In this document: piece by piece, positions 2,601 to 64,000 of the stretch
Position numbering within the stretch: the stretch's first letter is position 1
How the letters are laid out: every line of letters starts with the position of its first letter
Assembly: GCA_965287045.1 (NCBI GenBank)
Contig: OZ336902.1
Location: forward strand, 12,896,001 to 12,960,000
Direction: 5' to 3'
DNA: 64,000 bases
Source: Carcharhinus amblyrhynchos
Lineage: Eukaryota
The notes under the pieces: generated by a model
Database searches by the model: none
What the model was told of the DNA's origin: nothing
The model's input: only the letters and a program-made list of their open reading frames with translations
Made by a program: the position numbers and the translations under genes

Positions 2601-2648
2601 ATGGGATCAATGGTATGTCGAGTGAAAGTGGTCCAGGGAAGAGACTAA
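2601..2648 (+). promoter_or_regulatory. Out-of-frame upstream ORF (15 aa, [15 protein letters not shown]) overlapping the BRD4 start codon
   Basis: ATG at 2601 and an in-frame ATG at 2610, inside the spliced exon, 14 and 5 nt upstream of the main ATG (2615); stop TAA at 2646-2648. Confidence 0.6.
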
Positions 2649-2899
2649 GAAAATTACCAGCGATGGGGGATGGCCTAGAAAGCACACAAATGTCTTCAAC
2701 ACAGTCACAAGCCCAGCCCCAACAACCAAGTAATGCAATCGGCAATCCACCCCCTCCTGAAACATCCAACCCTAACCGATCCAAACGGCTGACGAATCAG
2801 TTGCAGTTCCTGTCAAAAGTGCTCCTGAAGACGATATGGAAACATCAGTTTGCTTGGCCTTTCCAACAGCCTGTGGATGCTGTGAAGCTAAACCTGCCT
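2615..2899 (+). CDS. BRD4: BRD4 first coding exon (N-terminus and start of bromodomain 1); exon begins at 2581 after acceptor ...ctcattgcag
   Basis: Translation [27 protein letters not shown]...[23 protein letters not shown]...[21 protein letters not shown] matches the BRD4-specific N-terminus (human [22 protein letters not shown]). Donor CCT|gtaagt at 2900; 285 nt, phase 0. Confidence 0.97.
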
Positions 2900-12160: not shown

Positions 12161-13405
12161 TATGAACATATGAGACTGGTAATTCTACAGCCTCTGATTT
12201 GATCTGTTGCATATCATTTTTGTTCCCTTGTCTTGTGGCCAGAAAGTGTGTACTCAAAAAAAAAATGCTAGGACCATAGCAGATCAGTCAGTGCTTGTGA
12301 GTGAACAGAAGTTAACATTTTTGATTGTTGGTCCTTCAGAAAATATTCTAATTGTTCTGTGATATAGTTTGATGTTGGCTTTGTTTACTGTCCTACATTG
12401 ATTGAATATCTTAAGTGTAAAGTCTTAAGACATTTTCATAATAGCTATTTCAACAACCTGTATATTAAAGACTTGTTTTGTTAATGGATTTCAGCATCTG
12501 TCTTGTGGTCTTGATAGCTCCAGGCTAAGTTTTCTAGTCTATAGGCTTGAGTATGGAAAAGTTGACCTGAATTTGTAATACCACTGAAGTGTAAACATTT
12601 TTCACATGCCAGAATAACTTTGATAATACAAGATTTAAATATGTCAGTATGCATAGTGAGGATTGACTAAATTGGATTTTTCACCATTTATCTTACTTTA
12701 AACTGGTCATACTGTAGCGTGAGCAGAGCAAATGCAGCTGTTTATTCCCTGTAAATATTTTTAATATTGCAGTCCTTCCCAACTCTACAGACATGGGGCC
12801 AAATAAAGAAATACATTTTTGAATCTTGGGAAATTGCCGGGTTTGATTCAATGAGGAAAGCAGTTCTCTATTTTTCCTGATATTGTGCCAACTTCCTGAA
12901 ATTGGAACATATGACTAATCAACACTTGGGGAGAAAGGAATTTGAAAAGTTTCAGAAACTCTGACTATCTTTTTATTCTTTCATGGATTTGGGACACTGC
13001 TGAGTGGCAAGGTCAGCATTTGTTGCTCATGCATAATTGTCCTTGAGCTGAATGTCTTGCTAGACCATATCAGAGAACAGTTAAGAATCAACAACATTTC
13101 TTTGATTCTGGTGTCACAGGTAAGAATGGTAGATTTCCTTTCCCAAAGGGTATCACAACAATTGGTGGTCATTTCATGGTCACCATTACTGAGGCTAGCT
13201 ATTCAGCTCTAAATGTTTTATTTATTTGAGCTTCAATTCCACCAGCTGTGGTGGTGGGATTTTAATCCATGTCCCCAGGGCATTTGGCTGGGCCTGTAGA
13301 CTACTAGTCCAGTGATGTTACTGCATGCTGTTTCTCTCACATACCCACAGACACAGACACGCACACAATTTAAGTATCCAAACTTTGTGCCACAGCTTCT
13401 GTTTA

Positions 13406-14592
13406 TTCAGAAGGCGTTTGATAAGGTGCTGCACAAAAGGTTGTTACAGAAGGTTAGGGGGCATGGAGTTGGGGGTAGGGTGTTAGCGTGGATAGGGGAT
13501 TGGCTGTCAAATAGGAGGCAGAGAGTGGGTGTCAGTGGGTGCTATTCGGATTGGCGGTTGGTGACTAGTGGAGTGCCCCAGGGTTCGGTGCTGGGGCCTC
13601 AGCTATTTACCATTTATATAGATGATCTGGAGGAGGGACCGAGTGTAAGGTGTCGAAATTTGCTGACGACACAAAGATTGGTGGAACGGCAAATTGTGCG
13701 GAGCGTGTGGAAAGTCTGCAAAAGGATCTAGATAGGCTGAGCGAGTGGGCAAGGACCTGGCAGATGGAATACAATGTTGGCAAGTGTGAGGTTATCCACT
13801 TTGGTAGGAATAATGGTAGGAAGGACTACTACTTATAGGGCGAAAAGCTGCAGCAGGCGACAGTGCAGAGGGACCTCGGGGTCCTTGTGCATGAGTCGCA
13901 AAAACCCAGCCTACAGGTGCAGCAGGTGGTCAGGAAGGCAAATGGGATGCTGGCCTTCATAGCGAGGGGGATTGAATATAAAAGTAGGGAGGTCTTGCTG
14001 CAACTGTACTGGGCACTGGTGAGGCCGCAGCTGGAGTACTGTGTGCAGTTTTGGTCGCCGCACCTGCGCAAGGATATTTTGGCCTTGGAGAGAGTGCAGA
14101 GGAGGTTCACTAGACTGATACTGGAGTTGAGGGGGTTGAGCTATGAGGAGAGGCTGAATAGACTGGGATTGTACTCGTTAGAGTTTAGAAGGATGAGGGG
14201 AGATCTCATTGAGACGTATAAGATGATGAAAGGGATGGATAGGGTAGAGGTGGAGAGGTTCTTCCCGCTCAAAGGACAGCAGGACTAGAGGGCACAGCCT
14301 CAAGATAAGGGGGGGGGGGGGGCTGCAGTTTAGAACGGAGTTGAGGAGGAACTTTTTCACTCAAAGGGTGGTGAATCTCTGGAATTCTCTGCCCATTGAA
14401 GTGGTTGAGGCTTCCTAGCTAAATATATTTAAGACGCGGGTAGATAGGTTTTTGGTAGGCAAGGGGATTAAGGGTTATGGGGAGAAGGCGGGAAAGTGGA
14501 ACTGAGCCACTTCAGATCAGCCGTGATCTTGTTGAATGGTGGGGCAGGCTCGAAGGGCTGGATGGCCTACTCCTGCTCCTATTTCTTATGTT
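13406..14592 (+). mobile_element. Young 5'-truncated CR1 LINE (RT C-terminal part plus 3' UTR)
   Basis: [72 protein letters not shown]-rich relative to its surroundings, with few disablements. TGTTTA on both sides (13400-13405, 14593-14598) is a possible TSD. Confidence 0.93.
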
Positions 14593-15340: not shown

Positions 15341-15643
<303 letters not shown>

Positions 15644-20071: not shown

Positions 20072-20210
20072 CAAGGGGATGACATAGTCTTAATGGCAGA
20101 AGCTTTGGAAAAGATTTTTCTTCAGAAAATTTCGGAGATGCCACAAGAAGAGATTGAAATACCCATACAGCCTACCAAAGGATCACGGGGTAGAGGCAGG
20201 AAAGAAGCAG
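20072..20210 (+). CDS. BRD4: BRD4 coding exon 3 (end of BD1, RGRGRK motif); absent from the ORF track
   Basis: tttacag|CAA...GCAG|gtacat; hand translation [46 protein letters not shown]; 139 nt, phase 0 to 1. Confidence 0.95.
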
Positions 20211-27718: not shown

Positions 27719-28026
27719 TTCAGTCTAAACCCAACATGTCAACTGTACAGACTGTCACACAGACAACCGTGCCACCCTTGGCACCAGCACAGACGCAGCA
27801 GCCACCGCCATCCCAGCGGACACCCCAGGCCTCTCAGCCGCCACCACCACAGCCGCAGCTTCCTTCTGTATCGGTGCCAGCGCCCACACCCCAGTCATTT
27901 CCTCCTGCAACGCCTGACCTGATTGTCCAGCCACCCACAACGACCGTGTCGCCACATACATCGGCCCCCCCAATGCCGACCCTCACGCCAACGACAGTAA
28001 TGACGACAGCATCACAGCCTTCAAAG
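27719..28026 (+). CDS. BRD4: BRD4 coding exon 4 (Pro/Gln/Thr-rich linker)
   Basis: tcatttag|TT CAG TCT (phase 1) ... TCA AAG|gtagat; VQSKPNMSTVQTVTQTTVPP...ATPDLIVQPP...SQPSK resembles the BRD4 linker ('TPDLIVQ'); 308 nt. Confidence 0.9.
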
Positions 28027-28839: not shown

Positions 28840-29262
28840 CATAAAAAGGGTGTGAAAAGGAAAGCTGACACAACAACTCCAACAACCAATGTTGCCGTGA
28901 AGAGTCGAGAGTCTTCTCCATTAATGACTGAACCCAAACCTGCAAAGATTCCATCTCGAAGTGGCAGACCTCCAAAACCGGCTAAGAAAGAAATGCCAGA
29001 CTCCCAGCAGCAACATCTGGAGAAGGGTGGGGGTGGAGGTGGTGGGGTTGTAGGTAGTGGCGGTGGAAGTGTTGGGGTTGTGGTTGGCAGTGGAAAGGTT
29101 TCGGAACAGTTGAAGTACTGCACTGGCATTCTCAAGGAAATGTTCGCCAAGAAGCATGCAGCCTATGCCTGGCCCTTCTACAAACCTGTGGACGTAGAAG
29201 CCTTGGGACTCCACGATTATCACGACATTATTAAACATCCCATGGATCTCAGTACTATTAAA
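28840..29262 (+). CDS. BRD4: BRD4 coding exon 5 (motif A, Gly-rich insert, first half of BD2)
   Basis: (ct)n ccaag|CAT AAA AAG GGT GTG ... ATT AAA|gtaagc; [15 protein letters not shown]...[56 protein letters not shown]; 423 nt. Confidence 0.96.
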
Positions 29263-37073: not shown

Positions 37074-37217
<144 letters not shown>

Positions 37218-39065: not shown

Positions 39066-39272
39066 GATGTGTTTGAGATGCGTTTTGCAAAAATGCCAGA
39101 TGAGCCTGTTGAACCAGTTGTTCCATCTCCTCCTCCCGTGCCGCCTCCGACCAACCAGGTGTCGTCCTCGTCCTCGAGTGACAGCAGCAGTGACAGTTCT
39201 TCTGATAGTGACAGTAGCACAGATGATTCTGAGGAGGAGCGGGCGCAGAGGCTAGCTGAGCTTCAAGAACAG
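39066..39272 (+). CDS. BRD4: BRD4 coding exon 7 (BD2 end, Ser-rich NPS CK2-site cluster, start of motif B)
   Basis: ttttccag|GAT...GAA CAG|gtacta; [14 protein letters not shown]...[37 protein letters not shown]; 207 nt. Confidence 0.96.
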
Positions 39273-43837: not shown

Positions 43838-44052
43838 TTGAAAGCGGTGCATGAGCAGCTGGCTGCCCTCTCCCAACCACAACTGTCAAAACCAAAGAAA
43901 AAGGAAAAGGACAAGAAAGAAGAGAAAAAGAAAGAGAAGGAAAAAGACAAGAAGGAGGAAAAGAAAAAGAAAGAGGATGTGGAGGAAAAGAAGAAGAGCA
44001 AAGTTAAGGAGCAACAGCCAAAAAAATCAAAGAAGAACAATGCAAATACCAG
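43838..44052 (+). CDS. BRD4: BRD4 coding exon 8 (motif B and Lys-rich BID region)
   Basis: cacacag|TTG AAA GCG...ACC AG|gtaatt; [32 protein letters not shown]...; 215 nt, phase 0 to 2. Confidence 0.95.
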
Positions 44053-46195: not shown

Positions 46196-46666
<471 letters not shown>

Positions 46667-48207
46667 TAGCCCTCGCGGATTAAAAAAAAATAATTGATCG
46701 TCACCTCGCTATATAAAATTGATCGAAAAATTTGTACATTGATTCATGTGCACAATCTAATCAAGCCATTCTTAATATATCAGTCATTCCCTCTCTTTAC
46801 TAAAACTGTTCTCCACTTACCATGCCATATGCTATTTCCTGACTGCAAGGTGTGTAGGGAGCTTCCCCCCCCAGGCTTTTCTAAGTATTACCTCTGAAAG
46901 CCGGCTGTTAGGTAGTGTACAAGACGAATATGGGGTTGACTTGTTTCTCGGATGCTAGTTTCTTTTTTGGCCCTAAGCCATGTCGCTGCCATTCTGTGTT
47001 GTCAATGCACTATCTTTGTGCCAAGAATGGTTGGTTGAAACAGTGACTAGTTATTAGCTTAAAATAAGAAACTTGCGAATGCTGTAGTAAAAACAGTAAA
47101 CTCAGCAGTAAAAGCAGAAACACTAGAGGTGTGCCTGAGGAGAAGATTGTCTGTATTTTATGGTTGGAAGTAATTTAAGCAAAGATTGATGGAGGTTTGT
47201 TAAGAAACATGTCAGAAATTAGTGCCAGTGGTATCAGACTGTGTAGTTTTCTGTACTGAATTTCAATCCCTTGTGTATAGTAACTGATAACTAGATGAGT
47301 TTACTTCTTCAGTGGACAATTTGAATCTATTGAGCGCAGTCTTCCATTTTTAATAAACATGATACCGCGCGTACTCTACCCACCCCCACCCCTCCAGAAT
47401 ATTACCTTTTATGTTCAGTAATGAAGGTGAAACATGAGCAGCATTGCTGCATGTTGTAATGCTGTAAGTTGCTGCTTCATTGTTTCAGAAATCCTTTATT
47501 TTGTTTTCCTTTGGCTCCCTATCCTCTGCAGCAGTAGGTGCAATAAAGCGTCATGGCAACTGCCCCATGTCTTGCCAGAATGAGTTGTTCTTGTGCGTGG
47601 CAGCTAGTGACTATTTCCTGTTTGCTCAACAGTGGAGATGTCACAGTGAATGTTCTTCTGCTTTCCAGATGTATCATTGCTCGCTCCCCACCTCCCCGCA
47701 ACACCACCACCATTGTGGGTCTGATAGCTAGAATGGTCGTGCTCCCCCTCACAAGATTTTTGTAATTCTGTATGGTATATCTTGGTGAATTGTAACCAGA
47801 AATTTGCATACAGCGCTATCACAAATTAAAAATACTGGCTGATGTATCAGTTGCCAACATCTTAACTGTGAAGTCCCAGCCTTCCTTACCCATGTCTACT
47901 TCATTGCCATCCACCAAAAGCAAAGGCCCAGGGAGAGGATTTAAAACAACATGGGGGAATATTTAGCAAACTGTTCTAGCTGACACAGGGAAGAGCAGCA
48001 GAGCTTGGGCGATGAAAGGCTTTGTTCAACTATTTACATGCACCGTATCTGACTAGTCAGTACATAAAGGGGCAACTTTTATGGGAATTGATGAATAAGG
48101 ATTGGGGGAAATTATCTGTCAGCTATAAGTTAATTATTAATTGGAAATTAATGTCACCAACAGAGGAGGAAATAGGTTAACTAGACAAAATCAAATTACA
48201 TCCATCT

Positions 48208-48420
48208 AAAAGCAAAATGTTGTGGATGCTGGAAATCTGAAATAAAGAGAGTGCTGGGAGGAAAACCTAGGTCAGGCAGCACCTGCTGCGGGAAAAATGA
48301 TTTTATGTCCAACTTCTTCCAAAGAAGAGTTATATTGGATTTAAAACGTTAACTCGGTTTCACTCTCCACAGATACTGCCAGACCTGCTGAGTATTTTCC
48401 CCAGCACTTTGGTTTTTATT
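48208..48420. mobile_element. Older degenerate palindromic Penelope-like element
   Basis: aataaa.agagtgctggg...aggtcaggcagca.ctg pairs with cagatactgccagacct...cccagcacttt..tttatt; centre cttcttcc aaagaag. Confidence 0.55.
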
Positions 48421-49559
48421 GCAAACAATATCTGTTAATCATGTAGCATTTAAAAAGTAATGAGTTGTCTCTAGAAATATAGATTCTATTGTAAATAAAT
48501 GCATAAATTTAGATTATTGGAGCTCAGGCATTGTTGAAACTGCAGAATGTGGGAGTTTAATGAGACGCTGATGAAGTTGCTTGTGACTTAAGTCATTCAA
48601 CTGGAAGGTTGTTGAGCTGGAGTGGAAGGTGGGAATATCTGGACCATCTACTCCAGACACATGCGTACCACACATAGGAAGAGTCATTTGACTAGTCATT
48701 GAGGTTAGGTGAGCATTTATGGAGTTGGATAACCTAATGAAGAAGGCATGCACAAAGCACATAAAGAATGAGTTTAGGAAGACAAAGAATGAACGTGAAA
48801 TGAAAATGTTAAAAAATTACAAGAAGAAATGGGTGAGGTATCAGCACATCAGTAACAGAAGGTTAATTAAGTTTAGGACCTCCAAGACATATACACAGCA
48901 GGTGATAGTGAAAGGATAAAGATGCTTGACTGGGATTTTGCCACAATTTCTGTTAAGGAAATAAAGAAAATGTGGTAGTAGTTGAGAGGGCTAGTACAAT
49001 AGTTAAGATCGGAAGAAATAAGAAATACATCCCAAGCTTCAGATCCCAGTGTCGTGTTCAAATTGATTGCATCTACACATGGTCAAAATCTATGAAGGCA
49101 GTATCATGAAGATTTACAGTCTGGCCTAAATGATATGCCAATATCTAATATCTATCTAAACCCAGTTTTGCAAATTTTTCCCCATCCAGAGCACCGATGC
49201 TCAAATACAAACTTGACATTTGAAATAAGGGTATTGATGTACAAAAATTCAATTGGTAAAGGAATTGAGGACTTCTGAGTAACAAGTGTAATTCCTATCT
49301 TCAAAAAGGGAGGTGTATCTAATCCTGGGAACAATAAACAAGTGGGCTTAACATTTGTGGTAGGAAAGGTATAAAATCTGTCTGATAAATTAACACAATT
49401 TGAAAAATAAAGTACTGTGAGGTTTTGCATTTTGTATTTCCTAATGCTTGCAAATTGGCCCTGTAAGACAGTAGCTGTTGCAGTTAGGATAGGTGGCTAA
49501 TAGGGTGACATTGACTAGCACAGGCAAGATGACAGCAATTCAGAAATCCAGAGGATAGA

Positions 49560-50340
49560 AGGATATGGGAAAGAGTGGGAAGAAAATGGCTCATTGAATG
49601 AGAATGGCTATAGCATGTTCAGCTCATATGCCTTTGCTCACCTGCTGAAGGCACAATTCATTTAATGCCATTTCCTGTCTATCATACACAGTAAAGTTTG
49701 GCAACGTTTCCTTTGCATAGGATCCTATTCCCTTTTGAAAGCCCTAGTTGACCCTGTCTTGACTTTCAGATCCTAACCACTTGCTGCATGAGAGTTTTTC
49801 CTCATATTGCCATTGCTTCTTTTTCCAATTATTTTAAATCCTTTTGTACTCAGCCATTTCAATGGGAGCAGTTTCTCCCTATCTATGTCTTTGCAGACCC
49901 TCATGATTTTGAATGGCTCTATCTAATCTCCTTTCAACTGTCACTTTTCCAAGAACATCCCAATATCTTCAGTCTTTCTACGTAACGGAAGGTCCTCAAC
50001 CTCTGCAGCCTTTTTTGTGAATTTTTAATGCACCTTTTTAATGTCTTCACATCCTTCCTCCTAAATTGTCATACCCTGGCCTGGATGCAATATTCAGTTG
50101 AAGTCAGACCAATATTTCATAACTTTTTTTGCTTTTGTACTCTTATCTCCCTATTGATAAAACCCAAGACGGGGGTTTTACTTTATAAATTGCTGCCAGG
50201 CTGTCCTGCCACCTTCAATGATTTATGCACATGCATGCCTGCCCTTCTGCTCTTTATTCCCCCCCCCCCTTTAGATTTGTATGTTTTACTTTATATCTGT
50301 AATGTCATGAGTTCTTCCTACCAAAATGAATCAATTGGCT
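49560..50340 (-). mobile_element. Degenerate CR1 3' fragment
   Basis: Similar to 21400-22150 (ttcagatcctaaccac..., catgattttgaat, cctgccaccttcaatgatttatgcac). Confidence 0.6.
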
Positions 50341-53300
50341 TGTAATATTGATGCAGAGAAATGTGCACTCTGACTACATGCTTACTTATTTGGTAGTGTT
50401 GAGATGCTTTACTAATCTTTTATGTGGAAATTTGGAGCAGCGCTTGCCAAATATTCAAACTAGATTAACTAGTTGAAAAATGCAGCATCAAATATCAACA
50501 CAAATGCAGAGGGAAGCTGCTGACCTTTCATAACACAGCAAGCATTTGTCTCAAATAAGACAAACTAATTTCTGTCGATCTCACTTGCAGCATTCTATTG
50601 CCAGGTTACTTGGTGTGTTTAGCTTATGCAGTTGCACATATTTTATTGCACTATAATACAAAAGATAGGTAGGTATCTTAGGATAGGTAGTAAACAATGT
50701 TGACCCACAGAAATGAGTTGGAAGCTTCCTCTGGCCCAAAAACTTGGCTGTGCTGGAAATCAGATTAAGTTATTGCACATGGCCAAATGCAGAATTGGTT
50801 ATTGCTGTCAAGCAACTAATGAATCTCAAATTATGGAAATGTTGGTGCTGTTTGATTGAAGGTTAGAGGTGACTGGCCCAAAGTTTCGTCTAGTTATATG
50901 AATTTTGAGCCCATAAGGTCCAGAGAAATTACAGTAAAAGTCTCTTTCAAAAACTCCCTCTGGACAAATACCAGCCTAAAATCAAATTTAATCTTGCTGC
51001 TGCTCTCTGCAAGGCGCATCCCATTTTGTTTTCCAAAAGTTTTCAGCTGTCTGGCCACAAACATGTCAGGAAATTGAAGATTTAATTTGACGAATAAAAA
51101 TTCAAAATTAAATTTCACATTTTTGTGCTGATGTGGAAGGAGATGCTTATGCAGAGGAATGGGACCCTTTGTGTTAAAACTTAGGGTCAACATCAAATTC
51201 TTCTAATTCGTATGTATCCAGATGAAGAGTAAAACTCTCCTTATTTACTTTCAAATCAGTCCTCTGCAGCTTCAGAATCTGCACGTATTATCTTTGTGTT
51301 CTTTGAGATTACCAATTTATAGCTAATTTTGTTCTTGTGGGCCTGTATCAACTGAGAGTCAAAACTACAGAAACTAATTTTGTTTTGAGCAATGATAGGA
51401 GGGACTTTAAGCCCATCCATCCAGGGTGCATCAAACCCCAAATTTCAGTGATGGTAGAATGCAACTCCATGTGGTTCCCAGTCTTACTACTTAACCCTTC
51501 TCTTTATGATCCAAGTTGAACATTAGAAATAGCAGGGTAGGCCATACTGTCCCTTGAGCCATTCAATTAGATCATGATTGATCTAACTCCACTTTCCAAT
51601 CCTATCTCCATATCCCTTGATTCTTTTGTCCAAAATAACCTATCAATCTCCTGCCTTTGTGGAGCGTATGAATGTTCCAAGATTATTCACGTTACTTTTT
51701 CTTCCCGTCTTTGCCTACTCGTGTTGCACCATCCAGAATGCCTGGTAATGGTTGGATTCTCACTGTGGATACAGCTGCAAAGCCAAATCTGTGTCCCCAC
51801 TTACCAACACATTACTGCCACTGCACCATTAGCTGACTGTGTAGATTTTTCTTGGAACTTGTAGGGGAAATTGTTGAAGATAATTGAGGTTATCAAATCT
51901 CTTGGATTTCTATTCAGTGTTGCCGTTGGTCTTAAGTGCATAGGACATTATTGTAATTGAATATATCTGAGGGGAAACAACTTCTTTTAAACCACCCCCC
52001 CCGCAAAAAAATTCAGATCAATTGTAGTTGAATTGGTTTCTGCTGCATATTAATCAGACCCATGAGGTGATGCCCCAGCAAGCCTAATATCTTGTCAAGG
52101 CAGGAATGCATACACACCATTCGTAGTCATGTACATGGCACTTGGTCAGTGTTAATCATGTGAACAGTGAGAGCGCAACTCTTGCAGTTGTGGGCCTGAG
52201 ATGACTGCTGTATAAAATTGTGTAGCATCTGTACACAATGGCTGCTTTCAAAATTAGCTCATTCTTTAGGATTGGATTGTGGAATTAGACTTGGTTTTCA
52301 TAAGCTTGACTAAAATAAAATCAACAAACAAAATGCTCAACCTTTTTCCTTCGCTTTTCTCCCCCCATTTCTCTTTGAAACTGTCATGCCATATTACATC
52401 TTTTGCCATTGTCTGAAGCAAAGTCACCATCTGAAAAATTTCACAAAATATGTAGTTTATTTATTTATGTGAAATGAGAAATAAATAGAAATGGGAAAAT
52501 TGTGGGTCAACAGCCTTGCACACCTCGATTCTAACTGAGTGTTCATGTGCGTTTCCAAATTAAATGTACTGTCCACATGACAAGTGCTTAAAAATAAAAA
52601 TTGTATCCCTGTAGGGGGAAAATGGAGCAACTCTGACCAGCTGCTTGTTAATTTAGTGTTTTCCATGCCAATGATTTGACGGAGGCTGTGTGACTGGGCT
52701 TGGAATTCACATGCTTTTTTTTGGCAGACAACATCATTGAACATCTGTGAGTCTATTAGTGAATGTGGTTCGGGGTTCCTTCCAGCTCCCAGGCCACAGT
52801 ATTTTTCTCCTGCCCTGAAGGCAACTTTTAAACACTCAAACATTTAAGATTCCACACACACAACTCGGTTCTTGCAACTCCAGGCTATGATTGTGAATTT
52901 TGCCATAAAGGCCATTGATAACCACATTTGAGATTGTATGTATGGGGTTGGGTTGGGTAAGGGACTTTCTGTGCACCACTCAGTACTTGAGGAAATGTGC
53001 CTCTCCATGCTGTTAAAAAGAAAAATGCATTTTTGAGAATTTGAGCATATATAAATAAGCTAGACCATTAATTGGTTTGTAGATTAATATTACAGGGTTT
53101 AGTGCAAAAATAATGGTGTTGGGACAGTGAACATGATTACTAATACAAAATGCCTCGCATTACATCTCTAACTGAATGGGTTCTGTTATGTTCTAAACCA
53201 ACATGATTTGGGTGATCTGTTCTTCTGTATCTTGTTCTTCTGTGTTGTATGTGGTGTTCTTACCCTGCTAGGAGATGATTTGAACTTTTTTGCACTGGGC

Positions 53301-54406
53301 GTGATCATTTACAGATCATGGTAAATGATCTGCTCTGTTCTATCATATTCCACTTGTGTATGGGCATGCACGGGTGGAGCAATGACATTATTGGGCTTCT
53401 TAACCAGGGGTCAAAGCAACAGCTGGTTTTCAGAGGTACACTGTTTCCTTTTTAATGTTGAACCTGATTTATCTCTTCCTGTGAAATTGAATTTTTTATT
53501 GTAATTTTGCAAAATTCGCTAATTGCAGAGTAGTGATGTCATGATTTAATATTAAACCTGTCTTTGTGCAAAACCATTTGTGTGTGAAGATATTTGTGAT
53601 TGCCTGCAGGGAAAATAATATGCCCAACAAAAAGTCAGGTGGTGTACTGAATCAGTTTCTGTCATGCCACTTGGTGGGGCTTTTGTCACTCACGGTGCTG
53701 AGTTCATAATATCAACTGTGTCACTGTGGGGAAATACTAAATACTTCCTCGGAGAGCATGGAATTCGCTGGCCCTTGTGACAGCTGGTTTATGGTGGCTG
53801 TGGAGGCTTTTGTGTCTTCTATCCTCTTGCCATCGGGTGGGGTGTGTGGGGGGGAAGCTATTGAAATGAAATGGTTTACTTGGTCTCATGTTTTAAGTGG
53901 CAGGAGCAGATAGTTTTAATTTTCTTTTCTGTTCCAGAATCCTTGAGAAATCCCTGTGCTGGCTATAGCTTACATTTGATATTGTCCTTTGTAATTTAAT
54001 TGGAAGCCGCAACCAGGGATTACTCTAGCCTCTGGCCTGGTTTTCCCTACGCTGCTGTTTACAGTAGCACAACTGAGGTCACTAGCAATGAATTGAGCCC
54101 TATATTTTTACCCTAAAGTGATTTAATCTGTCAGTAAAAGACTCTGACCTCGCTATTGCAAAATCCATATGCTTCCCAATATTTGTTAAAATTCTCTTCA
54201 GATTGATGGCCTTCAAGAGCAGTCACAAACTGTGAATGGGTTTTTGTTTTCCTACAGCTGCTTTCTTTCTTTTTTCTTTTTAAATTTGCAGAAACCTTGC
54301 ATCTGATCCCACGTGCCAAACTAGAGTAATTTTATTCACTGTGTTGTACCTGTGTACCGGTACCAAAGTGTTTGGTCCAAATCTTGTTGTGTGATGCTGT
54401 TTGCAG

Positions 54407-54526
54407 TGAAAAAAGTCCCAGGGAAATCGAACGATGACCTCCAGCTAGACTCGAAGAGTGAGCTGGATACCAGGTTACATGACGTTAGCGGCCAGCTGAG
54501 CTCTGGGAAGAAACCAGGCAGAAAAG
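54407..54526 (+). CDS. BRD4: BRD4 post-ET exon encoding a BRD2/BRD3/BRDT-type coiled-coil module
   Basis: gtttgcag|TG AAA...AGA AAA G|gttggt; phase 1-1, 120 nt, in frame with the ET exon; VKKVPGKSNDDLQLDSKSELDTRLHDVSGQLSSGKKPGRK resembles BRD3/BRD2 ...[14 protein letters not shown](S/N)S.KKP. Confidence 0.85.
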
Positions 54527-56906
54527 GTTGGTGTAGTGCAACCTTGTGAAGTAGATCCTTAGGCAAAATAGGCTGGGGTCAAGGCTAAAGTCAATTTGTT
54601 CGTACATATAATAAATAGCCTTGATTTTACGGTGCACATACCTCTCAAACTGCAACATGTTGAATGCTGGAATTCAGGCTCTAGTTTGGAGGCAGTGTGG
54701 CATCTGTAGAATCGCCATGTTGGCTCATTTTACTTGCTTGCACTGTGTTGCTACTTGGCTCAGTGGTGAAGCTTCCTGTTGGGGCACAGTGATTTTAAAA
54801 CAGTACAGTTGAGAGGTATGGTGGTAAATCTAATTAATTTGGTTTACTGGGTTGAAAGTGATTTAATAAATAAATGTTTATTTCTGGTTATGTACCAAAG
54901 CTAACATGGTACTTCTTTTTCATTCAAATGATTTAATTGCAGGTGGGGGTAAGATGTTTTGATTTCCTGAAACTGAACTATGAATGAATAAGTCTACATG
55001 ATACTGTTACTCTTTATAATGAACAATCTTATTAATTCAGGAAAAGCACCCTCTCCTACAAATTGAATCAGAGTTAAAATTCATGTAATCAATAAATTGT
55101 AATGATCCTTGCTAATACGGCAATAACTTGTATCTAAATATTTTACATAAAGTAAGAGACTAATGATGCACTGAGCCAGAGCCTTGTCTGTTTTACTAAA
55201 CTGAGTTGATTGGAATTGAAGTTGCTTTTTTTTCCCTCTGGTTCTTTCACGAAACCAGCAATGAATGATTTGCACATCTGGTAACACAAGAGAATTTCAT
55301 GTCCCAGCCTCAACAGTATGATAACCAAGGCTTGATAAAAGCATATTCCTTTCTTTCTTCCTCCCCCGCATCCCAGGGAAAAGTAATATTGGGCCAAGTT
55401 ACGGACAGTGCATCTTTTGTCATTGTGGTATGGAAATGGTATGCTTTCAGCTTTTGCACTTTAAAAGCATTTATACTGCACTTTTGTTTGGCCAACATTG
55501 GATGTTTTGAAGAGTTTATGAAGCAACCCACGTTTGATGCACAGCCTCCTAAGGCCACAAAATCATTTATTCTCACTCTTAATGATTGTTATAGACTGCA
55601 GCTCTCATTGTGGGTATTTAAAGGGATGAGTGTTTCAAGTCTGTGTGATGCAACCTTTACCCCAATTTTCCTTTTCAGTATGTCTACAGACTGTTTCCAT
55701 CATGAGCTAAACATTCCTCGAAGTTTTCACATTGAATTTAAGTTGCACTATTTAGCGGAGAGTTATGATGCATTATCTCACCAGGTTTTTCATCCTCCAC
55801 TCCTGATTTTTCACTCCCTACAGGTGGCTGGTCATAAGCTAATGAAACTTCTGACTGATTTCATTGTTCCTGTTATCATTGCGATACAGTCACTCACTGA
55901 CTTGGGAGTTGTTTCGAAGGTTGAAGTTTATCTTTTCTTTAGATAGGGTTGTCCAGTCAAAGCCTGTTTGAGGCATTCTGCATAGTTTTGTATGCTGTGT
56001 TGCAGAATTGCACTCTTGTTTATTTGGAACTAGTGAGATCAGACAACTTGTTTCCTTGGTAACTGTAGCTTATCTGGTAGCCTTCGATGTTGCAAAATTC
56101 TGAATAATTTGTGGCATTTTGGAAATGAAATCAGGGCAGTGAGGTACTGTGTAATTTGGATTTCACAAGCATCATATTGCTTGTCTTGTCTTAATCCTCT
56201 TTTCACTTCCCTGAGGGCACTGACTCTTTATGCATCACTGGCGGTCCCAAGGCATCGATCAGACCTATTAGGATAATTTAGTACACTAACAGTTGATCTA
56301 ACTGAAATCAGTTGAAGACTGGAAATCCAGCCTCATCCAGCAAAACAGTTATCCAATAAGACATAGGTTTATTTTCAGTCTTTGTGTTAAATCTGAACCG
56401 TACCAAACACAACACAAATTCAGAAGCATGAGTTAGAACACAATCTCAAGATCTGTGTGGCTTTTTGAGATTTGTATTTTAATGCAGCCTTTTGCAAAAT
56501 TTTTACTTGTCTTCTAGTTTCAGTTTCAGGCCTATGTTTCATTCTGCCTCTGAGTGATGATAAGAATGCTTCTTACGGCTTCTTGCTCCTGGCCTATTTA
56601 TGGTTAAAAAGCAGCCAATGTTCTTGCTCCAGTTTACTTTCCAGTCACTCCAGCCATAAAGTTGGCATGTTCTGAGGTTAGGTGGACAGAGGATTGGGTA
56701 TGATCACTGGCAGGTAACCCTTGGTATTGGTGCTCAAACATTAAGAATAGCTGCTTGGAGAAGCTGTGAAGGGTGACTTGATTTGTGTGCTCAATCCTAA
56801 TTCATTTTGATCTTGCGGTACCTCTTGTGGCACGTGGCAGTGTTATTGTTCCTCTTAACTTCATGCACTGCAGTGACTCCATCTTTCATTAGGAAAGTTC
56901 AGGGGG

Positions 56907-57170
56907 GAGGCAGCATGGTGGTACAGTGGTTAGCACTGCTGCCTTGCAGCTCCAGGGACCTGGGTTCAATTCCCACCTTGAGTGACTGTGTGGCATTTCC
57001 ACATTGTCCCCATGTCTGCATGGGCTTCCTCTAAAGCTGTGCAGGTTAGGTGGTTTGGCTATGTTAAATTGTCCCTTAGTAATCAAAGTTGTATAGGTTA
57101 GGGGGATTAGTCATGGTAAATGTGGTGGTCACAGGGATAAGGCCTGGGCAGAGTTGTGCTAACTCGATGG
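56907..57170 (+). mobile_element. Shark V-SINE, with its tail interrupted by the MITE-like element at 57170-57295
   Basis: ggcagcatggtggtacagtggttagcactgctgcc head. Confidence 0.8.
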
Positions 57171-57839
57171 GTGAGATTTTCCGGCCTTGCTCACCCCAAG
57201 ACTGGAAAATCCTGCCCAAGGTCACCACAACTTTGCATGGTCCGTGCCCTGCCCATTACGATTCCTGTAGTGGGCAGGATGGGTAAATTCCACCTGAGGT
57301 CTAAAGGCTTCTAATGCCCTGGGATTTTATGAAAGAGACTTTGCAATGCGATGGAAGTTCCAAATTTATAAAACCAATTCAAATTGATTAGGATTAATTG
57401 TCATTTAGTGTAGGATTAGCCAAGTAAAGGACAAAATGCCTTTATAGGAAAAGATGAACTGCTCCATATTGTTATAATGCCATATACTCATCAGCAATCA
57501 TGAATGAGACAACAAAAAATGATGTTTTAAATCCTTGATATCAATAAGAAAAACTTTGGAAAATTCCCCTCTGACATCTTTAGCTGATCAAAACTAGTCC
57601 TGGTCCAGATTGGCCATCAATTTTACTTGCCTTTCATATGCCACAATGACCTGCCCAGCCCATTACACATAAAACACTTTTAAAAGCAGAGCATTCACAC
57701 ACAGCGTGAGCCGACAACTTGGTCATTAGGTCTGCTAACCTCTCGGGGAGAAAACAGCCTCTGTCACCCTTCATTATTTTAAACATCTCTATCTAATCGG
57801 CCAAGAATCTTTGTCATCTGCTTAACATTGCCTCGTTTT

Positions 57840-58380
57840 GCACCCATCTTAGCTCATCTGCTGAAACTCTCAATGGCTTTGTTGGCTGTAGATTTGGCTG
57901 TTTCAACACACTCCAGGCTGGTTTCCCACAATTCTATCCATCGTAAACTGGAAGTCAGCTAAAGCTTTTGCTGGTGTCCTAGTTCTGCTCATCAATCACC
58001 CCTGTGCTCTCTGAGTTGCACTGGTCCCTAACCAAACAATTTCTTGATTTCAAATCTCTATTTCTGTAATCTCCCCCATCACCATATCTGTTCTTTCTTT
58101 CTGGTCACTTAAGCAACCTGATTTTAATTCCTGCACTATGGTGGCCATGCCTTCAGTTGTCTAGACCCACAAGCTCTGGAATGCCCTCTCTACCTACACC
58201 TCTTTGCTTTTCTACCTCACATGCCTTCTTTAGCACACTCCTTAAACGTGTATTCTTTGACCATTTGTCCTGATATCTCCTTCTGCAGCTCATCAAATTT
58301 TGTCCTATAATGGTTCTGACGTGTCTTGGATTTTTTATTAATAAATGTACACAGTTGAATGAGTTTGTAGATGTTGCTGT
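57840..58380 (+). mobile_element. L2-like LINE 3' remnant
   Basis: catcaatcacccctgtgctc...gcactggtcc and ggtggccatgccttcag...aagctctggaatgccctc motifs, typical of L2 C-terminal regions. Confidence 0.5.
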
Positions 58381-59199
58381 CCCCTGTCCTGCATCTGTGG
58401 TGTGTGTTTTTGGCTGCTAACCTGGCTTGTGTCTCTGGAGCCACTGATCTTTTTAAAAAAAAGACTAATCCATGTATTGGAGCTACTTAGAAACTACTGC
58501 CAAGTGTTTGTAAGTTTGGACTGAAATTCAGTGATGCTCTGTAATAACTGGTTTTGACAGCTGCTGGACTTATTGTTTGCTATTAGTAATAAATGACCCA
58601 CTCACCATTAACTTTGGAGTAGGCAGGAGATTTGCTCGTTAATGTTGAGCTAACTCTTAGGCTGGTGATTAAGTGGCCTGAAAGTATTCACCAATTGTTT
58701 TCAGAATATCTACGCGCTCTCCAGACAGTGCAGGCAAAATTGAAATGTTGACCTGGAGACATACTTTCCTTGCACTATTTTGGTATTGGGCTTCACCATT
58801 GTGTGAATCCTGAGGGAAAGATTTCTCATATCAAGTGCTTTAGGGAGGCCCCTGGTGCTTCTGCCAGATAACATTGTGAGTGGTCTGACTAAAATGACAG
58901 ATACAGGACCCCATCCAGCGTGAGTAGAAGCTTTCTTCTACTACCATCTGAAGGCAACGTTGTTAAATTGATGAATATCCATTTTACTGAATTAGAGGAT
59001 AGTTCACAACTATTCTTTTGTGAAACGATGGTCCAGTACAAAGACTGGTTTCCACTTTACCCTCCTGGGTCCACTGCCTGTTCAGAAGCAACTCCTCAAC
59101 TGGGAGTTAAAACCCAGCACTTAAATACAAGCTTCAATGAACATTACCTGCTCTCAATTCACTCTGAAGCTGGTCTTGGTTCGCTCTTAAAGGGACCCA

Positions 59200-61300
59200 A
59201 CATTGTCAGAACGGTACAATATAAAATCCCCAAACTAAAAGTACAAATGGTGGGCAGAAATGGCATGGGAAATCGCACTCACCAGCAATCTGTGCCTTGT
59301 CATGGTTACCTATAGCACAGGCACTTCTGATGAAGAAAATGAAAGTAGGTGGTACTCGCGAGAGAAGATTCTGAAGAATACCTCACCCAGACCATCTTTG
59401 ACTTCAACAATTCAACTTGATTCCTGTTCCTCTGACCTGTTCAGCACTGCCTTGGCACCACCAAAGACTGGAACGCCATTTGACAGCTGAAAAACAAGGG
59501 AACCTCTTGAGCAGTTGGAATTCCTGCTGAAATTCTGAAAGCCTGAAGAGATACATTGCTGGCATGTGCACAATCTCCTACCCATCATCCAGGAAGAATA
59601 GGGAGATTTCAGGGATGCTGTGATTGTGACTGTATTCACGGAGGGTGATGAATCTGATTGACGTAACTATAGGAAGGTCTACTTGCTAACTACCAGGGAG
59701 AAGATTCACACAAGGATCCTCCTCTGTTATCTCCCACCAGTCAAAGAGCTCCTTTCATAATCATAGTGCATTTTTCACCCATTGAGGTGATGTGATCTTC
59801 AGTGCAGCGAATGCCAAGAAAAATTTGAAGAACAGGACCACCTGCTACAAAATCTTTTTATCAATCTCACAAAGACCTTTGCCTCTGTCGACTGTGAAGG
59901 CTTATGGAGCATCTATGTGTTTGGGGCAACTTGTCACCATTCTCCCTGATCCATGGTGATATGCAAGCCATGTTTCTCCCAACAGAACTTTGAAGACTGG
60001 AATCAAACAAGGTTGTGTCATCACACCTACGCTTCGCTCCACCTTCCTTAGTGTAATAATGCGCTTCACGTCTGAGCAGTTTGCTGGACATGGAGATAAT
60101 CAACAGTAGCACAGACAGGAAGCTGTTTAATCTGTGCTGCCTTCAGTCTGAAACCAGAGTCACTCCATCTGCAGTCACAGAGCTTCAGTATTCAGATGAT
60201 GCTTTTGCCTCTGCTCGCTGAAACTAAGCACCAGGTCATTGTCGATTCCTTCTCAGAAGCATGGGAAATGGGCCTTTCACTAAATAGCCAGAAATCAAAG
60301 AAACTTTTCCAACCAGTTCCCACAGCACAGCACTTCCCTCTTTTAAGCAAGATCAATGGTGAGATCCTGGAATCTGGACCATTTTCTGTACCTTGGGAGC
60401 CTCCCCTTGACAAAGGCTGACATAGATGACAAAGTTCCAGCTCAGCCTTTTAGCCACTGAGAAGGTATTGGAGGGCCAGAATCTCAAACCAAGAGATTAA
60501 GGACATTGTTTATTGGGCAACAGTGATCTTCATGCATATAGAATCATAGAAACTCTACAGTGCAGAAAGAGGCCATTCAGCTCAAGTCTGCACCGACAAT
60601 GGTCCCATCCCAGGCCCTATCCCTACAACCCCACACATTTACCCCACTAATCCCTCTAACCTACATATCCCGGGACACTTGAGGGGCAATTTAGCATGGT
60701 CAATCAATCTAACCCCCACATATTTGGGAGGAAACCGGAGCACCCGGAGGAAACCTACACAGACATGGAGAGAATGTGCAAACTCCAGACACAGTGACCC
60801 AAGCCAGGAATCAAACCCAGGTCCTGGAGCTGAGGCAGCAGTGCTAACCACTAAAAGAATTAAAACCTAGCACAGGCACCTCAAAGCAATGGTTCCTTCA
60901 CAGGATTCTCCCCTGAAAGAAAGGCATCCAACGGCAACATCCTGTCTCAAGCCAATACGCTTAACATCAAGTGTCAATCACTCAAATCCAGCTCAGTTTG
61001 AATGTTTGAAACCAGCGTCCTGAAGCTTTTACTCAGTCACGGGGATAGCAGATATACTTTCATGATGCCCTAAAAATGTCCCTGACGAGGTCAGGTATCC
61101 TCAATGACTTAGGGAAGCAAGTGATTGACTGAAATGGAAAAGGTTCATTTGGGAAGGTGCTGAACCGTTTGAGACTTTGGGAATGCACCAAGGTGAAGTT
61201 AAGGTGCCGGGAGTGTGCAAACTTCCAAACAAGTCATCTTTCTGACCTTATAAGCACAATCTGCCCTACAGATGACAGTCTGCAAATTATGCATGATCTC
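59200..61300 (+). mobile_element. Degenerate RTE-clade LINE, interrupted by a SINE
   Basis: Remnants DFRDAVIVTVF, NYR..LL...GKI..RILL, KTGIKQGCV, ELQYSDDA (YADD motif), MGLSLN..K.K. Confidence 0.7.
60537..60852 (-). mobile_element. Shark V-SINE nested in the RTE LINE
   Basis: agaatcatagaaactctacagtgcaga...ggaggaaaccggagcacccggagg...tgaggcagcagtgctaaccac. Confidence 0.85.
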
Positions 61301-62934
61301 AGAACCATTGGACTGAAATGGAAGCAAGTCGTACTCGAGCCTGAGAGACTGCTTAAGAGGAGATACTTTCAGGATAAACTTGTGACCAAAGTGTCAAAAT
61401 AACTACATGCATTGGATTTGATCAGGTTCTGATTGTAGCACTCATGCTTGCTCCTATAAATAGAATCATTTAGCCCAATCAACAGACAGACTTCACACGT
61501 CATGTGCACAGTGTGACTGATTGGAAAAAGCAACCCACTGATAGATGGTGTCATACCTGAATTTTTGTGTAGTGGGAGAAAGTGTTAACTTTTCATCTTT
61601 GTCTTTTCATCAGAATTGGAAGATGTTACAGATGTGACTGTTTTTAAATAAGTTCTGAGGCAGGGAAAGGGAGTGAAAGATGAACAAAAAACTGTTTGAT
61701 AAAATGGATGCTGCAAGGTAGGGAGGATGTTAATGAATCAAGTAATGAAAAGAGGTCTAGGAGTGGGGTAAATGGGAAAACAGAATTATCCACGATATCT
61801 GCCACCTGAAAACAAAAAGCAATGCATGAACTAAAATTAAGTCTAGAAGACCATTACGTACTTAATTGAAAGATGATAATGCTTTTCCCTGAACTTATAC
61901 TGACCTTCATTGGAGCATTTTAGGAAGCTGAGGGCAAACGAGGTCAGTCTGTGAGTGGGTTGGCACCTGATTGAAAAACTCTGTCAGTTGACGTAGCTTT
62001 TCATATACAGTGAAACATTGCTAATCTGGGTTGAAGGATAAGCTTGTAACTCCCGTGTGCAGCCAACAGAGTATTGGATTGCAGTTTGAGTGAACATGGT
62101 AATGTTAACTTAACACCGAAGTCTGCATTCTGCTTTATTGGTGATTCATGCTTCCTATGCTACCTTAACATTTGAGGTAGTGTGAAGAAACCACTGTGTC
62201 CTCTCACTGTTGGTAACTCTGAAGTTTGAGATGATGCTGGATAGATGTTGGAGAAAATGTTCCTTACATACTACCTGCCGCCCCATTAACGACAAAATAG
62301 TATTGACCACTAACAAAGCATGCATGTGCATTTTGATTCCAGACTGGACGTTAATGTAATGATTGGACATTCATGTAATGACCGTGATCCTGAGTTATTG
62401 ACCTAGTGGTCACAGTTGTGAAATTGAATTCAATAAATCGAGTAATTCGTGGACTGTCATTGGAAAAAGAGATACTAAAGCTGTTCGACACAAATATTCA
62501 ACTGATTAAAATTGTCCATCAGCCGGACAATGTAACCCATCCGCTATCTACTGTCTCTTGATTCCTGATCCACTTTACAGTCTGAACTTTTAATGCTGCC
62601 TTGTATTGCTTTGGAAGCCATAGGGTAGCCCAGGAATTGGGGGTCGACCAATAAATGCAGCTTTACAGCATAAATATAATACCATATTATTAAGCTTCTT
62701 TTCTCTTTAGATTTTCACAAAGGGAAAATTCTCAGCACACCAGGAAACTTTAACCTATATTGCATTTTCCTTGTTAAGATAATTTTAGAAAATAGAGTAA
62801 GGTCTTGCAAAGGAGGAATATATAGAGAAAGCTATTGCTTTCAATTGTGTTACATTGGCCTAAATTGAAGGTTTGGCTATTTTGGCTTGCTCTTAGTGCT
62901 CTGGAGGATACCCCTGCATTGTGGTTTGCTTTTC

Positions 62935-63360
62935 ATAGAGTCAAAGAGGCTTACAGCATGAAAACAGGCCCTTTGGCCCAACTTGCCATGCTGCCCTTTT
63001 TTAAACTCCTAAACTAGTTCCAGTTGTCTGCGTTTGGCCCTTATCCCTCTATACCCATCTTACCCATGTAACTTTCTAAATGCTTTTTAAAAGACAAAAT
63101 TGTACCGCATCCACTACTACCTCTGCAGCTTGTTCCAGACACTCACCACCCTGTGTGAAAAAATAGTCCCTCTGAGCCGTTTTGTATCTATGTCCTCTCA
63201 ACTTTAAAGTTATGCCCTTTAGTTTTAGACTCCCCTACCTTTGAGAAAAGATACTAACTACCTAGCTGATCTATGTCCCTCGTTTTATAGACCTTTATCA
63301 GATCACCCCTAAGTCTCCAACACTTGAGGGGAAAAGTTCCAGTCTATCCAGCCGCTCCTT
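62935..63360 (-). mobile_element. CR1 3' fragment
   Basis: catagagtc..tacagcatgaaaacaggccctttggccca...gttccagacactcaccaccct; CR1 3' UTR and ORF2 end on the - strand. Confidence 0.75.
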
Positions 63361-64000
63361 GTATGCTCCTCAGGTTACTTTATTTAGTTTTGCTTCTCTC
63401 AAAACCTCTGGTTACTTGTGGTAATGGCCCAAAGTGACCTGTGGTCTTCTGAGAGCTCTGATGGCATTTACCACGGGGTCAACGCTGGAAATCCTATCCC
63501 TTTCTTGTCCTCACTCACTTCTACGGATAATAGGATCGTGATCACTCACTTGAAAAGGAGAACTAAGACATACTCATCACACCTGACTTTACAGATGATT
63601 TTGGTTAACAAAGTAAACTTGTATTCCCAATCTCTTGTTCAATTTCTCTTCCGCATCGGGTACTCTGTACTAGGTGACAGTAGTAATTGCTTTGCTAAAG
63701 TTGAGGATTTCCCCTTATTTCTCGCAAATACTATCATTATATTTTGCAATAACTGGCATCAAATAACTCTTGACCAAATGCGTACTAAAAAGTATAACAC
63801 CAATGGGGTCAGAGTGTGAGGTGATTTTTCTGGTATGGTTGCATGTAGTTTTGAAGGACTGCTGAAATTGACAATAACAATCCAGAAAACTTCCAAATGG
63901 GATTTTGTTTTTTTCCTTTAATCATAAAAACCAGGAGCAGGAGTAGCCATTCAGATCCTTGACTACGCCACCATTTAATGCGGTCATGTCTGATTTCAGC

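Follow-up and report, generated by a model that had tools for sequence, protein, structure and literature searches.

A spliced exon of shark BRD4 homologous to the post-ET coiled coil of BRD2 and BRD3, and its likely loss from bony-vertebrate BRD4

The stretch of DNA analysed here (the window) is 64,000 nucleotides long and corresponds to C33:12896001-12960000 of this shark genome, C33 being its contig. It carries a gene with tandem bromodomains (BD1 and BD2) and an ET domain. An 11-exon coding sequence (CDS) was assembled by coordinates, in which GT follows all exons and AG precedes all internal exons. The SEED exon (C33:12965435-12965557) lies outside the window. The features within the window, all on the forward strand, are as follows.

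2615..2899, + strand: first coding exon of BRD4 (N-terminus and start of BD1); 75% identity to gecko BRD4 residues 1-95, and the top homologue matches are BRD4
15449..15586, + strand: BD1 exon, from the gecko BRD4 alignment and the CDS assembly
20072..20210, + strand: exon ending BD1, on the same basis as the BD1 exon
27719..28026, + strand: Pro/Thr-rich linker exon, flanked by AG and GT and in frame
28840..29262, + strand: exon with linker and the start of BD2, including a Gly-rich insert
37074..37202, + strand: BD2 exon
39066..39272, + strand: exon with the end of BD2 and a Ser/Asp-rich stretch
43838..44052, + strand: motif-B/basic exon, which joins the ET exon directly; its 3' end is the loose end before 46370 in the X1 contig
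46372..46658, + strand: ET-domain exon, ending in phase 1 (Pfam BET PF17035, E=7.8e-30)
46659..54406, + strand: 7,748-nt GT..AG intron from the ET exon to the coiled-coil exon; the joint is present in the X1 (depth 32) and X8 (depth 19.3) contigs
54407..54526, + strand: 120-nt phase 1-1 exon, homologue of the post-ET coiled coil (CC), from splice contigs, a profile and a PDB match
54527..64000, + strand: beginning of the 14,908-nt intron that separates the CC exon from SEED, based on contigs that enter the SEED exon

The sequence was read directly as tttgcag at window positions 54400-54406, followed by the exon, whose in-frame translation is stop-free, and then by gttggt. This confirmed the 120-nt, AG/GT-flanked, phase 1-1 exon that the original prediction had placed in frame after the ET exon. 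Since the ET exon ends in phase 1 at 46658 (AAG/gtgaga), the joint is read as G+TG, encoding V, and the reading frame continues intact into the 120-nt exon. The 11-exon CDS is stop-free both with and without this symmetric (1-1) exon, the frame surviving its skipping, and the CDS without it reads RKPQ-AEK, a joint also found in BRD4 of gecko, newt and mammals. Elsewhere in the gene, a Gly/Val-rich insert just 5' of BD2 (window ~29026-29095) was gapped in the gecko BRD4 alignment, and the basic exon after motif B contains a duplicated 13-residue run (window 43895-43975). The first BD1 intron holds a fragmented reverse transcriptase remnant at window 13300-14285, which we take to be of the CR1/LINE type; similar copies lie downstream of the window.

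The gene is BRD4, as had been predicted. In a 31-row tree covering BD1 to a few residues past the ET end, from which the CC was excluded and one row (P0102) was dropped owing to a mismatched cut pattern, the window gene and 11 bony-vertebrate BRD4 rows came out as sisters, supported at 100/100, and the gene did not group with BRD2, BRD3 or BRDT. Downstream exons, reaching ~41 kb past the window, encode a long Pro/Gln-rich tail with the C-terminal end AATIDMNFQSDLMAIFEENLF before the stop codon, and this tail end is 90% identical to gecko BRD4 residues 1307-1327. The C-terminal motif is not decisive alone because it is also present in BRDT. Synteny with AKAP8/AKAP8L, EPHX3 and NOTCH3 fits at the gene-family level only: AKAP95-family exons are located ~110-190 kb upstream (C33 12.70-12.83 Mb; 5 of 47 genome matches on C33), an epoxide-hydrolase (EPHX)-like gene is located downstream of BRD4, and one of four NOTCH NODP matches is on C33, 6 Mb away, every BET-bearing contig having a match. 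The linkage of EPHX3 and NOTCH3 to BRD4 is presumed here.

Several observations were made on these neighbours and paralogues. A C-rich low-complexity tract of ~1.8 kb (L007:9100-L008:1000) lies directly 5' of the first exon of the EPHX-like gene, and C4 70.7-71.4 Mb holds some ten AKAP95-family copies in a tandem array, all of them intronless and each containing a single TGA. The BRDT-type and BRD2-type genes are both on contig C9, at 15.77 Mb and 94.94 Mb. Two NOTCH NODP matches also fall on this contig, placing two BET paralogons on a single chromosome. Database proteins of sharks and rays that are called 'BRD3-like' (P0059, P0062, P0081, P0093 and P0106) were placed in the BRDT clade of the tree. 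A previous study named akap8l as a BRD4 neighbour and counted the BRD genes of the elephant shark; the CC is unmentioned in the portions of it consulted here (PMC9454494).

The post-ET CC segment of BRD2 and BRD3 was reportedly described by Werner and colleagues (Werner et al. 2020, JBC). The peptide encoded by the 120-nt exon scored 45.3 bits on a profile made from 26 paralogue motifs only, whereas 100 post-ET stretches lacking the motif scored <=2.3 bits on the same profile, so that the likeness to the CC is not due to chance. A phmmer search of the PDB gave a single significant match, 6CUI of human BRD2 (E=1.2e-4), and the peptide had no family match in Pfam. Each of the four BET genes of this genome contains one ET exon and one CC exon. 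The CC exons are all in phase 1-1 and, by the boundaries as read here, measure 120, 120, 120 and 129 nt, the BRD2-type and BRDT-type genes having the same 120-nt exon as BRD4, and the BRD4 peptide is identical to its three paralogues at 17-21 of 39 residues. Like the CC of BRD2 and BRD3 represented by 6CUI, the segment lies directly after ET and before SEED and has the core RLxDVSGQL. The proposed homology to the post-ET coiled coil of BRD2, BRD3 and BRDT was thus borne out. Lamprey and hagfish BET proteins carry the motif. Comparison of these sequences suggests that, in this exon, shark BRD4 has likely retained the post-ET coiled-coil exon of the ancestral BET gene. The CC core of the BRDT-type paralogue matches named shark proteins, which together with the tree position points to a shark as the source of the gene.

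Both junctions predicted for an included exon, 46658>54407 and 54526>SEED, were found in contigs, which were taken as RNA because their exons are joined at GT..AG, no run being recorded as RNA. The 46658>54407 joint was present in both contig runs covering 46200-54800 (X1 and X8, from two organisms); the X1 contig continues from 54526 into the 5' end of the SEED exon, and the X8 contig leaves this stretch at 54526 with more than 1 kb still to run. When four further contig runs were examined at SEED, the X4 and X19 contigs entered the SEED exon from the 3' end of the CC exon. Inclusion was the sole path in four of the six contig runs (X1, X8, X4 and X19). The splice sites of the CC exon are near consensus, like those of the other exons of the gene (donor 7/9; acceptor pyrimidine fraction 0.60, like that of SEED).

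The X12 and X13 contigs begin exactly 3 bases 5' of the SEED acceptor, and their first base differs from the intron. In a k=31 graph simulation, the contig start was offset by 3 bases if included and skipped forms occur together, AAG being the end of both donors, but by 2 bases if the intron is retained; intron retention was rejected as the cause, since the observed offset was 3. This logic was confirmed at the SEED donor, where X12 divides in two, one path being spliced and the other reading through, with overlaps of 30 bases. The contig break in two of the six runs fits an exon-skipping form and is an indirect hint of it. It may instead reflect another weak donor ending in AAG: a strong [CGT]AAG/GTRAG donor was found in neither intron, and weaker ones exist, such as the GT at position L002:5461 in the SEED region of C33. 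An ET>SEED skip junction was absent from the contig ends listed for the six runs. Two raw-read runs over 46200-54800 (X22, 16 reads on 8.6 kb; X23, 0 reads) were too thin for junctions. The suggestion that the exon could be a cassette agrees with its symmetric phase and preserved frame; the sign of actual skipping is the indirect one in X12 and X13, inclusion being the path in the other four runs. Separately, read-through at the SEED donor (L002:5558-5760) gives an in-frame ETG-stop ending, that is, a short BRD4 isoform; one contig (X12) followed this path at a depth of 4.2 versus 34 for the spliced path, and it could also be pre-mRNA.

We examined BRD4 of bony vertebrates for the motif. Of the rows retrieved, 126 include an ET end; 26 of these had the motif, none of them closest to BRD4, and the 100 motif-less rows were reduced to 94 BRD4 rows by removing four non-BRD4 and two truncated rows. 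The motif was present in 0 of these 94 rows, which are redundant isoforms, mostly of teleosts, and are protein models, not intron scans. They represent gar, many teleosts, two frogs, newt, two geckos and mammals, and include all listed gecko, newt and zebrafish isoforms; bichir, sturgeon, coelacanth, lungfish and birds are absent from the set, as is the ET-SEED part of skate and chimaera BRD4. Bony-vertebrate BRD4 resembles shark BRD4 in its clade, exon order, C-terminal motif, the RKPQ-AEK joint of the skipped form and the short ETG-stop ending, but lacks the CC in every row. Given this count, the loss maps most simply to the bony-vertebrate stem, and a single loss of the CC exon there is likely the simplest reading. 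Thus, the proposal of ancestral retention followed by loss held, but its placing of the loss late, towards mammals, did not, because BRD4 of gar, teleosts, amphibians and gecko also lacks the exon.

The distribution could also arise if BRD4 had lost the exon before the jawed-vertebrate split and a paralogue had later supplied it to sharks again, through gene conversion or exon duplication. We consider this highly improbable. All sampled bony BRD4 lack the exon, which such a history would accommodate without being directly supported by it, but the shark exon is close to no single paralogue (70-78 of 117 nt identical, compared with 78-81 among the paralogues themselves), its intron position is homologous, its phase and size are identical, and the paralogues lie on other contigs.

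Protein searches for other chondrichthyan BRD4 were also performed. The CC peptide gave one match among six candidates, a bat BRD3, and no chondrichthyan BRD4; the N-terminal exon gave 420 matches, the best 120 of which included no shark BRD4; and the tail exon gave a chimaera fragment only, starting after SEED, with no chondrichthyan BRD4 spanning ET to SEED. An exact look-up of 10 single-exon ORFs gave 0 matches. None of these blanks bears on the annotation of shark BRD4. Shark gene models probably contain the CC exon.

BRDT provides a comparison within the family. Like shark BRD4, BRDT of cartilaginous and bony fish has the CC together with a C-terminal BRD4_CDT domain (Pfam), so the combination of CC and tail is not new. 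Fish BRDT differs in forming a separate orthology group, and the CC of shark and skate BRDT is intact in sequence. Annotated isoforms of two skates (X3 and X4) leave out the BRDT CC exon, as do a bichir model and a chimaera model, and the CC of bichir and reedfish BRDT is eroded. These observations suggest that tail-bearing BETs tend to drop the CC exon. Skipping within the BRDT clade was also seen in a hamster model; the proteins concerned, from the skates, bichir, chimaera and hamster taken together, are P0200, P0204-P0206, P0211-P0213, P0065, P0079 and P0108.

The CC peptide of shark BRD4 has diverged from its paralogues. Residues unseen in 18 distinct paralogue rows occupy eight of 20 core columns, mostly as E to D and K to S, T or N, and columns near-invariant from hagfish to mammals are changed (E at 2, 7 and 13; K at 8). 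The helix-propensity sum of 8.47 was the worst of 19 distinct rows (the others, 5.28-7.47). AlphaFold, run on single 41-residue sequences, predicted a helix at 17-32 (16 residues), as compared to 9-31 (23 residues) when this genome's own BRD2-type exon was used. Set against the BRD2/3 CC, the predicted helix has lost some two turns, and other residues stand in place of the K/E-rich N-terminal half. The amino-acid branch of the exon was 13.0 differences long versus 4.5-8.0 for the paralogues. While the charged K/E-rich face is not kept, the hydrophobic stripe is: all six hydrophobic positions are retained (Fisher p=0.046, borderline and post hoc), as is the core, and the exon has neither indel nor stop. 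The erosion is selective in sparing the hydrophobic positions, which qualifies the original description of an eroded K/E-rich helix. The identity of the exon in X1 and X8 is uninformative on constraint (P=0.17 at the intron divergence of X8). Taken as a sequence, the peptide is altered and probably still under constraint.

It appears improbable that the peptide is functionally dead, with an exon that is still spliced in as a harmless linker and is on its way to the loss that bony vertebrates have undergone. The roughly doubled amino-acid branch agrees with such a reading, as does the parallel decay and skipping in bichir BRDT. The exon also has a purine content of 0.63 versus 0.72-0.73 in the paralogues, and 10 purine hexamers versus 23-26, as expected for decaying exonic enhancers, which the lost purine runs may weaken. 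However, the retained hydrophobics and RLxDVSGQL without indel or stop speak against it: in a random-mutation simulation, hydrophobics and an open frame survived in ~5% of cases at 25 changes (borderline and post hoc; range about 1-10%).

Another explanation is that the exon is constitutive and fully functional, encoding a BRD4-specific, re-tuned CC with a shorter helix, an acidic N-terminal half and two extra CK2-type sites, and that there is no loss stage. The prevalence of the inclusion path, the near-consensus splice sites, and the unchanged length and hydrophobic stripe are in line with this, and three S/T-x-x-D/E sites are present as compared to one in each paralogue. CK2-type motifs are, however, commonplace in acidic sequence, the near-invariant E and K residues listed above are changed, and the 3-base start of the X12 and X13 contigs hints at a second form. 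We regard this explanation as unlikely overall. Nevertheless, the 'intermediate stage of exon loss' suggested originally may be only one reading of the exon, and a stable, re-tuned exon may fit as well.

The reading that we prefer, with a probability of about 0.72, is that this is a spliced exon of shark BRD4 that likely represents the ancestral CC, probably disappeared in a single event on the stem of bony vertebrates, and has a predicted shorter helix with likely weakened BRD2-like activity. Most transcripts encode ET, then the CC segment and then SEED, as the splicing of the contigs shows. The C-terminal half of the segment (ELDTRLHDVSGQL) is predicted to form an amphipathic helix with a Leu/Leu/Val/Leu stripe, and the N-terminal half would have lost helix formers and charge through the E-to-D and K-to-S/T/N changes. 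The segment and ET may still form a partner-binding surface that is weaker than in BRD2/3. The exon would be mostly included and sometimes skipped, skipping yielding a BRD4 like that of bony vertebrates; given its symmetric phase, neither skipping nor an eventual deletion would disturb the frame.

The functions of BRD2/3 and BRD4 are split between initiation and elongation, a division for which the C-terminus with its CC offers the best-mapped reason. According to the part of a review consulted, the CC acts together with ET and gives BRD4S BRD2-like activity; here, the module sits in BRD4 itself, the paralogue described there as needing the CC of BRD2 for such activity (PMC8446420). In the consulted part of a 2025 preprint, TFIID binding was mapped to a C-terminal fragment of BRD2 that holds the CC, without being narrowed to the CC, BRD4 was hypothesised to have lost its initiation role after gaining the P-TEFb domain, and mapping of the CC surface was listed as open (bioRxiv 10.1101/2025.09.20.676678). 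The BRD2-TFIID link is supported in the portion seen of another study, which leaves its directness open (PMC13083254). The consulted portions of PMC10789245, PMC11335234, PMC8391731, PMC13373324, PMC3826993 and PMC1309616 contain nothing on sharks, and a literature search, with most subscription journals outside its scope, returned no study dealing with a CC exon in the BRD4 of cartilaginous fish.

The exon is thus a known module retained, with orthology confirmed, in the one BET paralogue thought to be without it. A BRD4 with both CC and P-TEFb tail dates the loss of the CC after the shark/bony split, and comparison of shark and bony BRD4 shows this loss to be a clean exon deletion. With its hydrophobic face kept and its charged residues changed, the shark CC is a natural mutant for mapping the CC surface, and it would allow a test of how BRD4 function diverged from BRD2/BRD3. 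More speculatively, shark BRD4 might be a living intermediate of BET specialisation, switching by splicing between a TFIID-engaging, CC-plus form with a P-TEFb tail and a bony-like CC-minus form, and the tail-bearing BETs (BRD4 and BRDT) might repeatedly lose the exon via a cassette stage; we put this forward as a tentative and rather doubtful extension.

The 129-nt CC exon of the BRD3-type gene (C25, 1.07 Mb) encodes MSGQP, with proline for the conserved last leucine, and ASK for PSK. Judging from these changes, the BRD3-type CC exon may be eroding too.
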